Origin: a virus
Taxonomy: Duplodnaviria; Heunggongvirae; Uroviricota; Caudoviricetes
Length of the DNA: 15,685 nucleotides
Virus record (IMG/VR): IMGVR_UViG_3300028453_000035
Direction: 5' to 3' (one strand)
Shown here: positions 3,001 through 9,000 of the stretch, in pieces
Layout: each line of letters begins with the position of its first letter
Position numbering within the stretch: position 1 is the first letter of the stretch
Program-made: the position numbers

Positions 3001-6000
3001 CTCATCGCGGTAACGAATTTTTTTGCGTCTGTAACGCCCTGTATCGAACAGTGCATTTTCCTGCCAGGCTTCCAGTTGGCCTTTTATCGACACACTGAGA
3101 TCCGCAGTGGCAATCATGAGTTGCTCACGAACAAACTGTAAATACTGGTTATTCATGCACACCCACCTCTGTAATTCTTATCTCCAGCCGTCCACCAGAT
3201 ACTGGCTGGCCACGTACAATATTGATTTCATCAAACTGCTCATCGTCCATTAACAACCCTGCATGCGTCAGCGCATCCAGCGGCGCTTTCAGGATATTAT
3301 CCAGGTCACGGCGGCGCTTATCCGGTGGCTCTGCAATCACCTTTATCGCCAGCCTTCCGGACAGGCTTAATTTCAGCCGCTGCTGGCGAACAATAAGCGC
3401 CACTGCCCGGCGATAGCGCTTTCCCTCCTCAGATATAAAATATGTGCTGCCACGACGTCGCCAGTAAGTATTCACCGTCGGTGGATAAGGCAAAACAAAC
3501 TCTATACGCATCAGTAACCTCTTTTACCCAAGCACGCCGGTTGCAAAGGCGTGATCAAGAAAACGAAAAATTAACTCAACCTGAGAGCCGTACTTTTTCT
3601 CAAACTCCAGCGGGTCTGCATGAAGTTCGTTGTGATGTTCCCGGCACAACGGTAGCGTGAAAATATCGTGGGCCTTTGTCCCCATTCCCCCCTGACCATG
3701 ACCAATCAGGTGATGCGGATCGTCAGCAGGCTTACCACAACACGCACACGGCTGTGTCTTTACCCAGCGCGTGTATTTCTCATTAACCCAACGGCGACGT
3801 TTAGGCCGCCTCATGAACGATTCAGGAGACTCCGGATCAACAGCGATACTGACAACCGTTTTTTTCTGTGGTGGATTTTGTTGCTGGTGGACGTGAAGTG
3901 GCAGCGCAATATTTTTTGTGCGCTGCTTCAGTATGCTGATGGCTGTCTGTTCTCCCGGTACGATGTCACTCTCACGATATACGGAGCGGATTTTTTCCGC
4001 TGGTAATCCCAGCGAACGACGCGCTACTGCCTCAGGTAATGCATCCACCACCTGATTGCAGGCCGCCCACCAGGATAATTCGGCCAGCGATAATTCACGC
4101 TCCTGTGTGCCATTCATTGCGTGACGAATGACGTCAATCATCCATGCTGACAGGTTTTGGTGAGCAAGTTGCTCAAGTGATTCGGAGGTCTGGTCACGCA
4201 ACTGGTTGTCGCAGTGCCAGCACAACACCATTGCGCCGGTACCATAACGGTGAATGACGGTTTCACTGTGGTGATAATCGCCGTGTGGCCACTGGCAGGA
4301 TTTAACATGGCGCAGTAACCAGTCAGACAATGCGCCAGCGCCACCAGCAGCACGAATCACTCGTTCGTCGCTGAAAAATGGCAGTAATGATTTATCCTCC
4401 GCCAGCGGCTGGCGAACGGCAGGAACGACCCCGGACGGCAGATTACGCATGCTTTTCGGTTCCGGCTCCACCAGTACCCGGGTATTGTGGAATACCGGCA
4501 TGGATTCACGGCCCGGCTTAACGATCACCAGCCCGAGTTCCGGTACCAGAACAGGTCGAAGTAATACCCGCACGTTACCTCCAGATGCGCTGCTGGAATG
4601 TGCGGGACGGACGCGGTGGGCGTTCAGTGTAAGGAAGCCTGACGGAGATTATCCAGTGACGGTAGTCGAGGCTAAGGGCTTTTTTAACCTCGTATCCGCG
4701 CCTGCGGTAACACTGAATGAGCCATTCGGCCTGTTCTTCAGTGCATGGGGGATGCTGGTACCAGTCAGATTTGAATGCGTGAAAACACCGTCTGCGCCTG
4801 CTGGCAAAGACGGCTGAATTATCAGAATTGTGTAATTTGGTATCGTGCGCCATCGGTTGTCTCTGCTGGCGCAGCAGGTGCCAGTTGTTCAGGCTGGTGT
4901 GCGAATTGTAAACCAGAATGCTAGGAAAAAACAAAACCCGCCGAAGCGGGTTAAGTGCGGGTGCGTTGAGGATGCCTGACACATCAGAGGTGGCGAGGGA
5001 TTCTCCCCATAAGCGCTAACTTAAGGGTTGTGGTATTACGCCTGATATGATTTAACGTGCCGATGAATTACTCTCACGATAACTGGTCAGCAATTCTGGC
5101 CCATATTGGTAAGCCCGAAGAACTGGATACTTCGGCACGTAATGCCGGGGCTCTAACCCGCCGCCGCGAAATTCGTGATGCTGCAACTCTGCTACGTCTG
5201 GGGCTGGCTTACGGCCCCGGGGGGATGTCATTACGTGAAGTCACTGCATGGGCTCAGCTCCATGACGTTGCAACATTATCTGACGTGGCTCTCCTGAAGC
5301 GGCTGCGGAATGCCGCCGACTGGTTTGGCATACTTGCCGCACAAACACTTGCTGTACGCGCCGCAGTTACGGGTTGTACAAGCGGAAAGAGATTGCGTCT
5401 TGTCGATGGAACAGCAATCAGTGCGCCCGGGGGCGGCAGCGCTGAATGGCGACTACATATGGGATATGATCCTCATACCTGTCAGTTCACTGATTTTGAG
5501 CTAACCGACAGCAGAGACGCTGAACGGCTGGACCGATTTGCGCAAACGGCAGACGAGATACGCATTGCTGACCGGGGATTCGGTTCGCGTCCCGAATGTA
5601 TCCGCTCACTTGCTTTTGGAGAAGCTGATTATATCGTCCGGGTTCACTGGCGAGGATTGCGCTGGTTAACTGCAGAAGGAATGCGCTTTGACATGATGGG
5701 TTTTCTGCGCGGGCTGGATTGCGGTAAGAACGGTGAAACCACTGTAATGATAGGCAATTCAGGTAATAAAAAAGCCGGAGCTCCCTTTCCGGCACGTCTC
5801 ATTGCCGTATCACTTCCTCCCGAAAAAGCATTAATCAGTAAAACCCGACTGCTCAGCGAGAATCGTCGAAAAGGACGAGTAGTTCAGGCGGAAACGCTGG
5901 AAGCAGCGGGCCATGTGCTATTGCTAACATCATTACCGGAAGATGAATATTCAGCAGAGCAAGTGGCTGATTGTTACCGTCTGCGATGGCAAATTGAACT

Positions 6001-9000
6001 GGCTTTTAAGCGGCTCAAAAGTTTGCTGCACCTGGATGCTTTGCGTGCAAAGGAACCAGAACTCGCGAAAGCGTGGATATTTGCTAATCTACTCGCCGCA
6101 TTTTTAATTGACGACATAATCCAGCCATCGCTGGATTTCCCCCCCAGAAGTGCCGGATCCGAAAAGAAGAACTAACTCGTTGTGGAGAATAACAAAAATG
6201 GTCATCTGGAGCTTACAGTGGCCATTCGTGGGACAGTATCCCTGACAGCCTACAAAACGCAATTGAAGAACGCGAGGCATCGTCTTAACGAGGCACCGAG
6301 GCGTCGCATTCTTCAGATGGTTCAACCCTTAAGTTAGCGCTTATGGGATTCTCCCCCGCCTGGTCTCTTACTCCTCAGGTTCGTAAGCTGTGAAGACAGC
6401 GACCTCCGTCTGGCCGGTTCGGATTCGTACCTCGCAGAGGTCTTTCCTCGTTACCAGTGCCGTCACTATGACGGTTAAACAGATGACGATCAGGGCGATT
6501 AGCATCGCCTTTTGCTGCTTCATAGCCTGCTTCTCCTTGCCTTTCGGCACGTAAGAGGCTAACCTACGTGTGTAGAGCATAGATATGGCCTCAGATTAAT
6601 GTTAAGCGTCTTGCCGGACGCGTAATGTTAACTGGGGCTTTTCTCTATCTGCCTTTTGGTGTTCATGCCTGAGACAGATAGCCTCAAGCACCCGCAGTCA
6701 TTCTACCCGTTTTAGATTTCTCAGCCAACTTTATGCTCACAACATATACAAATTTCCCGGTTAAAGCTCATCATGTTAGATAGTTTTTGCGTACGCACTA
6801 TTTTTTTATGTAAACTGCGCAAAAAAGTTTAGCACCCTAAATTGTTAAGGGAAAGTTAAGGAAGTGTTAATGCTTGAGCAAACAGTAAAAAACATCAATT
6901 CACGCTTTGGCTGGCGCAACACCCGTAAGCTTCTTGGTTCATCACTGGGTGTAACGGCCCAAGGATTACCCCTTTTTATTGAACGTGTAAATAGTGTAGT
7001 TCAGCATAATCCCGACCTAAAAGACAGAATCGACGATTTCTGGAAAGGTTTAATTTTTAGCGGGAATCGATTACTTTCTATTTATAGAATCACCGATGAA
7101 GACGTAGCAAAATTACAAACAATTTTCACAAATCAGAAAAAGGACAATAGCCCCTTCTCAGAAAAATACCCAACTCCTTTATCCAGAGAGGAGCTGTTAG
7201 TTGCTGATACTGAGCTGCATTTTGCTGAACTACGTCAAGATATCATTCGTGATAAACAAATTGACACTGCTGTTTTTTTATCCAAAGCGTATTACACTGA
7301 AGTGATAGAGCTTGACCCAACACATCTTAGCGATGCGGGTATGGAATTACGTGCTAATGGTGGAGAAATAAAATGCAAAACACGCCAAGTCACGCAATGC
7401 TTTAATACCATCATGCTAATGCCTGCAGAAAAAATATTAATTCTTACGATTGATTTATCTATCCTTCCAAGAAGTGAATCACAGCCTCAACAATACCTTG
7501 TGGCTAAATTTATAAAAAAAGAAGCTGGCGTTATTTTAAACAATCCTCTTGAATTATTTGGTTCAATACAAGATCTTTACGAAAAAGTAGATGGCAGAAT
7601 TTCTCATGTATCTTTTATCACCTCAGATGGCAATACAAGTTCTTTAAAACTCAAACCAAGTCAAAAGTGTTTGCGTCAAGATGTTTACCATCATAGTGGA
7701 GAGTCCGCAAGCCCAATATTGACAAAGTTTAAGTTGGGAAAAATTTGGGATTTACCACAAAGTTCTTCACATATTTTATCAGTAGAGTTAATATTACCAG
7801 GAAAAAGGACAATGCTTGATAATCCTAGAATTAGGTTGCATGAAGCAATTGCGAAGAACTGTAACAACATTGATTCGATTATATTTATTGTTGAAAAAAT
7901 ATTGGATTCTGTTAAGTCCTGTGAAGAGAAAAGAAGAGCGAGATCATCAGGCCATAAATGAAAAAGAGTATATATCACGACATTATCACGCAAATAGAGC
8001 AGGATTTTAATGATCCTGTTCGCAGTGTGTGTCGTGATCTTTTTCTTTTTCTGGTTAGTAAAGATGCTAAAAATATCAATCACTTTACATACAAAACCCT
8101 TATCAATGGTTTAACCTATCTAACTGATACGAAAGATGACTATATCCTGCTAATAAAAGCAACTGATTATTTATCTAGCTATAAAGCACATCTATTGGAT
8201 ATGCATTTTCAATACATTGATAATTTAACGGAAGAACCAATACCAGTTGAAGATGATCTTATTTCCTATGCTTTAGACACAGGAAGTTTTTACCATCCAG
8301 AAACTGGCGAATTGGTTGATAATTTTAGCCAGTATCTTTATCCATACTTTACTCCTTCGAGTCTTTTGGAGAGTCTGCATGAGTGATGTAAACATCTGTA
8401 CTGCAGACCTTCAATCATTAATTAGAATGGATCCTGAATTTAGGGGAATGGTTCAAAGAAAATTAGCTGCAGACAAAAATATTTTTGTAAAGCAACTCTA
8501 TGAAGATTTAGACGACGCTATTCAGAATTTAGAAAATGACAAACACTTCTATCAAGATGCTAAGTGGGGAGAGGACGAGCTAACAGCGTCGATCAAAAAT
8601 TTCCTGAAAGGTAGGTTTTATGATGTTGAACATGATACTCAACATGGCGGTCACGTTGATTTATTAGTTAAACATCAATTCGGAAAATTCGAATGGATCG
8701 GTGAAGCAAAATTATGGAGAGGCCCCAAATCTATTCATAATGGCTGGATTCAGCTAACCGAACGTTACGGCACGGGTACGTCACGTGACGATCATGGAGG
8801 AATTCTAATTTATATAAAGTCTGACAAATCAGCAGTAAAATTCAATGAATGGAAAGAATTTTTCTCTACGACCGTTTCGGACGCAGAAATTGAAGCGGAA
8901 GGCTCTCCCCTCCGCTTTAAGAGTATCACAAAGCATCCAGCAACAGCGCTTCCATATCATGTAAGACACATGGGAGTATCCTTATACCATTACACTGGTA

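Follow-up and report, generated by a model that had tools for sequence, protein, structure and literature searches.

A probable hokD-type hok/mok/sok locus of a Qin-like prophage interrupted by IS186 at the stem-loop downstream of the toxin gene

A toxin-antitoxin locus interrupted by an insertion sequence (IS) was analysed in a viral DNA stretch of 15,685 nucleotides (nt) (Caudoviricetes; IMG/VR record IMGVR_UViG_3300028453_000035), the whole of which is referred to here as the window. The locus is very probably a complete toxin-antitoxin system of type I, hok/mok/sok of the hokD type, in a Qin-like lambdoid prophage, which was invaded by an intact IS186. The hok toxin gene lies on the minus strand at 6368-6523 and encodes a protein of 51 amino acids (aa) that is 100% identical to K-12 HokD (RefSeq name HokD, WP_000813254.1; Pfam PF01848, HOK_GEF, 82.9 bits, E = 1.2e-23). 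On the same strand, a mok-type open reading frame (ORF) of 70 aa (6368-6580) forms an in-frame upstream extension of hok and is collinear with K-12 MokC. The hok mRNA leader (6518-6693, minus strand) matched the full Rfam model RF01794 'sok' at 117.1 bits, the gathering score being 59 (E = 1.3e-26). A consensus scan predicted a sigma-70-like hok/mok promoter at 6700-6728 (minus strand), composed of a -35 box TTGGCT (6728-6723), a spacer of 17 nt and a -10 box TAGAAT (6705-6700). The transcription start implied by this promoter, at about 6693, falls on position 1 of the Rfam model and agrees with the K-12 hokC leader. A candidate Sok antisense RNA was placed at 6572-6648 on the plus strand by homology to the annotated K-12 sokC, and this region folds at -31.8 kcal/mol with a terminator-type hairpin. 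Compared with K-12 hokC/sokC, 18 nt are inserted at 6606-6623 (on both strands) within the terminal hairpin of the candidate Sok. This insertion, visible in the Rfam alignment as well, lengthens the hairpin common to the hok leader and the candidate Sok RNA (77 nt, against 59 nt in K-12).

The complete IS186, a member of the IS4 family, occupies 5008-6345 on the plus strand (1338 base pairs, bp), and its transposase gene insL is convergent with hok. That the element is intact and bounded by perfect terminal inverted repeats of 23 bp, as the first-pass annotation had described it, was borne out. The repeats (5008-5030 and 6323-6345) are 100% complementary with both arms reading CATAAGCGCTAACTTAAGGGTTG, and insL (5063-6175, plus strand) encodes 370 aa that are 100% identical to K-12 InsL1 and carry the DDE_Tnp_1 domain (Pfam PF01609, 93.7 bits). 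The nucleotide identity to K-12 IS186A and IS186B is 99.85%, and only two differences from IS186A were found, a synonymous base at 6058 and a non-coding 1-nt deletion at 6217. The 12-nt direct repeat GGGATTCTCCCC noticed earlier is present at 4997-5008 and 6345-6356. It includes the terminal C and G that are also counted as IS bases, and an element of 1338 bp leaves a target-site duplication of 10 bp, GGATTCTCCC, at 4998-5007 (left copy) and 6346-6355 (right copy). The inverted repeats run to 25 nt when the G and C runs of the target are counted, and because of this lengthening the IS boundary is inherently ambiguous, with a duplication of 6 to 12 bp. The spacing between the hok stop codon (6368) and the IS end (6345) is 22 nt (6346-6367), as the first reading of the sequence had it, and is equal to that in K-12 hokC::IS186A. 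Inside the IS, a terminator-like hairpin (GCCGGAAAGGGAGCTCCGGC then TTTTTTATTA; 5774-5793, minus strand) was called by consensus scan only. It is antisense to insL, has a U-tract and lies about 550 nt into IS186 from the right end, and it is a possible end point for transcripts entering that end, including hok read-through.

The arrangement before the insertion was reconstructed by removing IS186 and one copy of the duplication, giving a transcript of 421 nt from 6693 to 4925. The reconstructed hok mRNA folds at -169.6 kcal/mol (z = -7.1), and none of 100 shuffled sequences folded as well. In this fold the tac element at the 5′ end of the mRNA (GGGUGCUUGAGG; 6682-6693, minus strand, mRNA nt 1-12) pairs with the fold-back inhibition (fbi) element (CCUCAACGCACCC; 4959-4971, minus strand, mRNA nt 375-387) with probabilities of 0.96-1.0. 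A GC stem-loop of 9 bp, GGCGGGGGA-GAA-UCCCUCGCC, occupies mRNA nt 334-354 and begins 8 nt past the hok stop codon; its 5′ arm GGCGGGGGA lies at 6352-6360 (minus strand, mRNA nt 334-342) and its 3′ arm UCCCUCGCC at 4992-5000 (minus strand, mRNA nt 346-354 before insertion). The original intrinsic terminator of hok, AACCCGC-TTCG-GCGGGTT then TTGTTTTTTC, follows at 4925-4952 (minus strand, mRNA nt 394-421), with the stem at 4952-4935 and the U-tail running to 4925. It begins 67 nt past the hok stop in the reconstructed transcript, in accordance with the minus-strand terminator that had been expected about 70 nt downstream of hok.

The target duplication corresponds to mRNA nt 339-348, that is the apex of the stem-loop, comprising its top four base pairs and the loop; IS186 therefore made its staggered cuts symmetrically about the hairpin dyad. 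As the sequence now stands, hok retains the 5′ arm of the stem (6360-6352), and the 3′ arm (5000-4992), the fbi element and the terminator are found on the far side of the IS. The stem-loop is thus destroyed, fbi and terminator are shifted 1.35 kb away, and hok transcription now enters IS186 antisense to insL. The earlier statement that the IS separates the hok ORF from its terminator therefore stands, but is incomplete in that the IS also split, at its apex, a separate GC stem-loop (nt 334-354). Likewise, the claimed parting of hok from its 3′ control element is supported by the fold, with the refinement that fbi (4959-4971) and the terminator hairpin (4925-4952) are separate elements. In the predicted fold of the post-insertion transcript the tac-fbi pairing is absent and the 5′ end pairs locally. 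A substitute fbi was sought in the IS186-antisense read-through, and no complement of at least 7 nt to tac was found there. With fbi 1.35 kb away and the 5′ end locally folded, the locus is therefore to be regarded as a disrupted member of the hok/sok family.

The empty site was compared with 5,426 complete E. coli genomes. The rebuilt sequence aligns without interruption in 3,799 of them, the best matches being 99.8% identical and annotated hokD. The alignment to an IS-free locus that had been proposed as a check was thus available. An ST648 genome contains exactly 1348 bp fewer than the window, shows one mismatch in 507 flanking nt, has the arrangement of stem-loop, fbi and terminator, and reads ...GGTGGCGAGGGATTCTCCCCCGCCTGG... 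at the empty site, with the repeat GGGATTCTCCCC in single copy. The occupied junction was recovered at 100% identity in two genomes only, 2013C-3181 and N51. The window is 99.8% identical to each over 14.5 kb and identical to neither, which adds a third carrier of this insertion event to the two. Changes after the insertion were also observed, since the copy in 2013C-3181 has lost one C from a C7 run and the window copy has the synonymous change at 6058. Of the proposal that the insertion was clean and recent, the first part is upheld by the single-copy repeat at the empty site. The second holds in a relative sense only, because at least three related prophage copies share the insertion and their IS copies have diverged since by one mutation each.

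The C7 run lies within insL at 6133-6139 in the window and reads C6 in the 2013C-3181 copy of the same IS. The loss of this C accounts for the RefSeq frameshift label on the 2013C-3181 transposase. A frameshifted transposase in the window itself was considered and rejected, the run being intact there and the 1-nt deletion belonging to 2013C-3181. An independent IS186 copy in another genome (L007) also has a transposase annotated as frameshifted. The difference between C6 and C7 could be a homopolymer sequencing error or real slippage.

The position of the insertion can be understood from the target specificity of the element. IS186 inserts in either orientation into the rare palindrome GGGG(N6/N7)CCCC, of which the core is duplicated (Lee et al. 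2016, PMC5009759). K-12 holds 54 such sites, some of which were struck repeatedly in neutral mutation-accumulation lines, and 7 of 59 published sites deviate from the consensus by one or two bases (PMC5009759). The window target reads AGGG-ATTCTC-CCCC on the plus strand; 7 of its 8 flanking bases fit the consensus and its core is duplicated, so the description of the target as one of the kind preferred by IS186 holds. In the 14.3-kb pre-insertion window no perfect site and four one-mismatch loci were found, the used site being among the latter. IS186 lies 22 nt past the hok stop because the DNA of the stem-loop is a near-consensus IS186 target. The "22 bp" is thereby explained, since IS186 enters at the dyad of the terminal stem-loop of the mRNA, whose DNA sequence is the IS186 consensus.

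The expected effect on Hok was derived by comparison with plasmid R1. There, a tac-fbi stem holds the full-length mRNA in a closed and inert state, and slow 3′ processing converts it into a translatable, Sok-sensitive form (PMC9841398). Disruption of the equivalent terminal stem by a single base abolishes the processed hok mRNA and toxicity; in the mutants G345A and C358A the processed mRNA is gone (PMC9841398). By analogy, the stable, translationally inert pool of full-length hok mRNA would be unable to form, any processed and translatable hok mRNA would be without its protective 3′ stem, and the transcript would be open, accessible to Sok from the start and short-lived. As the stem is split and fbi removed, a stable reservoir of toxin mRNA should therefore not build up. 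Rather than being unleashed, Hok expression would likely be attenuated or lost, and with it any abortive or post-segregational killing. The truncation of the hok mRNA at its 3′ end, or its read-through into the IS, as put forward in the first-pass annotation, follows from the sequence; the altered regulation that was attached to it can be narrowed to a probable loss or attenuation of Hok.

The same configuration recurs at other hok loci. Perfect IS186 sites are contained in the hairpins of K-12 hokC (GGGG-ATCACT-CCCC), a plasmid hok (GGGG-ATCTCT-CCCC) and another chromosomal paralogue (GGGG-ATTTCT-CCCC), and IS186 lies at the identical position in all three. A junction query joining 250 nt each of IS and hok, counted at a coverage of at least 80%, was matched in 819 of the 5,426 genomes in the orientation of the window and in 936 of the 5,426 in the opposite orientation. 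Some hokC/hokD-like locus is occupied by IS186 at this place in 17% to about 32% of complete E. coli genomes. In L007 the same hokD locus is occupied (junction query 99.6% identical) with the IS reversed relative to the window, and L008 and L009 carry one plasmid hok locus with IS186 in opposite orientations. These sequences point clearly to several independent IS186-hok insertion events. The 5′ tac sequence and its pairing were found also in K-12 hokC and plasmid hok, K-12 hokD, K-12 hokC and plasmid hok each have an element equivalent to fbi, and the tac-fbi pairing straddles the insertion point in every reconstructed locus that was folded, including K-12 hokC and plasmid hok. Since IS186 occupancy is common, judging a hok gene functional from its toxin ORF alone would misjudge many loci.

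The alternatives were weighed against this interpretation of a hok locus disarmed through the loss of its 3′ structure. The chance that the hok-IS junction arose from faulty assembly or chimeric joining is negligible. The complete genomes 2013C-3181 and N51, which were assembled independently, show both junctions together with the same duplication and orientation; the clean target duplication agrees with the single-copy sequence at the empty site, and no evidence for an artefactual or chimeric junction was found. Several points nevertheless weigh against the loss of Hok function or against parts of the account given above. The window target departs from the IS186 consensus by one base, no Sok promoter was called by the consensus scan (the candidate Sok being placed by homology to sokC), and every functional step is carried over by homology from R1. 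In K-12, the gef/hokC::IS186 mRNA, of equal geometry and orientation, is reported as still transcribed, with its end inside the IS, and as being under the control of the antisense RNA Sof (secondary source PMC3562002), and by this comparison the hok locus of the window may not be fully silent. Chromosomal hok loci free of an IS have moreover been reported to lack post-segregational killing (summarised in bioRxiv 10.1101/2025.08.07.668861), and the insertion may change little phenotypically. These observations feed the view that the insertion is functionally neutral, with transcripts ending or being processed inside IS186, Sok control kept, hok potentially toxic and the position set by target preference alone. 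As this view would have it, the window retains an intact promoter, mok, hok and Sok region, and a terminator-like hairpin lies on the right strand within IS186 (5793-5774). This is the sole terminator-like site found by the scan on the hok strand within the IS, and its distance of about 550 nt is discrepant with the gef mRNA of about 644 nt, which ends inside the IS at a distance that is unclear in the secondary source (PMC3562002). Functional neutrality is considered doubtful, as in R1 the translatable mRNA is lost and toxicity suppressed when the terminal stem is weakened by even one base, whereas in the window the whole stem is split and fbi removed, and the IS186 read-through has no complement of at least 7 nt to tac.

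A different question is whether the recurrence of IS186 at hok 3′ hairpins goes beyond target preference and has been positively selected, as a means of disarming the toxin or escaping addiction. The very high occupancy (819 and 936 of 5,426 genomes by orientation) and the several paralogous hok loci hit by independent events speak in favour of selection, as does the report that four hok homologues adjoin mobile-element insertion hotspots of E. coli, for which adaptive disruption was suggested (Durrant et al., bioRxiv 10.1101/527788). Yet the hairpin is itself the IS186 consensus, a rare motif hit repeatedly in neutral lines, and target bias alone can explain the recurrence. Counts of genomes are, besides, not counts of independent insertion events, and the one-mismatch site of the window shows low occupancy in this orientation, with two genomes at 100% junction identity as against thousands that are empty. 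Positive selection is accordingly held to be unlikely. Still further from what the data favour, and very improbable, is the proposal that the hok 3′ stem-loop serves as a dedicated landing pad for IS186, selected and mutually stabilising, in which the toxin would be disarmed and, in the convergent orientation of the window, read-through from the hok promoter would yield a long RNA antisense to insL that damps transposase expression. The interpretation preferred here for the window thus remains that of a toxin locus likely attenuated by an insertion whose position reflects the target sequence of IS186.

The surroundings of the locus are those of a Qin-like lambdoid prophage, with an antiterminator Q, RusA, a DUF968 (YdfU-like) protein and a small PHROG-1212 protein, and with DicF and ydfABC further on. 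A full-length gene for the small RNA DicF lies at 14587-14638 on the plus strand (Rfam RF00039, 75.8 bits), with ydfA, ydfB and ydfC upstream of it and dicB downstream in related genomes; from these neighbours the region is therefore identified as a prophage immunity region of the Qin/dicB type. Two differing antiterminator genes of the Q family (2467-3162 and 9017-9550, both on the minus strand) lie 6 kb apart and flank hok/IS186, which suggests mosaic or tandem late-control modules of the prophage. A cassette of three genes (6864-9020, plus strand; 365, 142 and about 200-234 aa) is situated between the hok promoter and the second antiterminator gene. Its proteins match only the function-unassigned PHROGs 12777, 11490 and 9664, the 365-aa protein gave no Pfam match, and a PADLOC search of the cassette yielded no convincing match, the one weak hit being PDC-S54 (E = 0.002). 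Other genes occupy the position of the cassette in ST648, and in N51 its first gene is annotated as shortened; the cassette could represent an accessory module or a moron. An ORF of the PemK/MazF toxin type, so named in RefSeq, lies at 1872-2351 on the minus strand and matches PHROG 1936 weakly (MazF-like, E = 7e-10), and no adjacent antitoxin gene is contained in the RefSeq annotation of related genomes. Positions 1-163 of the window align to neither of its two nearest genomes, 2013C-3181 and N51, and the differences cluster at 169-184; a breakpoint of recombination is suggested by this, immediately beyond the DNA-methyltransferase gene.

Pedersen and Gerdes are said to have described in 1999 that IS elements lie near, and not inside, the chromosomal hok genes of K-12, about 22 bp downstream. 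The window fits this IS-interrupted chromosomal type, its IS lying 22 nt downstream of the ORF as in K-12 hokC and hokE. In the literature no paper was found on the hokD-type prophage instance or on the identity of the hok terminal stem-loop with the IS186 consensus; both points derive directly from published facts. Taken alone the locus is of little weight, as it adds one hokD-type prophage locus to the known hok genes interrupted by IS186.

The closest counterpart in the position of the IS is K-12 hokC (gef)/mokC/sokC::IS186A, where the element also lies 22 nt past the hok stop within a GGCGGGG...CCCCGCC stem-loop, the transposase is convergent, fbi and terminator are stranded on the far side of the element, and leader and tac nearly equal those of the window in sequence. 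It differs in its location next to dnaJ/nhaA instead of in a prophage, in a HokC of 50 aa (against 51 aa) with about nine differing residues, in a perfect target (GGGG-ATCACT-CCCC, against the one-mismatch AGGG-ATTCTC-CCCC) and in an IS copy that is 1 nt longer. K-12 hokE/sokE::IS186B likewise has its IS 22 nt past the stop codon, in a GCGGGGAGTAATCCC... motif, but there the Hok paralogue has a divergent sequence and the element runs in the direction of hok. With plasmid R1 hok/sok the window shares, in its reconstructed pre-insertion form, the architecture of tac-fbi pairing of the mRNA ends, coupling of mok and hok and a protective terminal stem-loop, with a candidate for the antisense Sok of R1 (PMC9841398), the homology of individual stems being drawn from position and the Rfam model; R1 is free of an IS and functional in post-segregational killing. 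The IS186 hotspot in the lon promoter resembles the window target in being a GC-rich palindrome that is entered in either orientation with duplication of the core (PMC5009759), the difference being that a promoter is hit at lon, whereas in the window it is an mRNA 3′ stem-loop one base off the consensus. The toxin itself is that of K-12 hokD (relF) in the cryptic prophage Qin, with an identical Hok protein, a nearly identical stem-loop, fbi and terminator, and shared neighbours downstream (a small gene resembling rem, and YdfU, a DUF968 protein). The two loci are interrupted on opposite sides, since K-12 hokD has no IS and its promoter, mok and sok are replaced by relBE, whereas the window has kept the full 5′ control region and is interrupted on its 3′ side.

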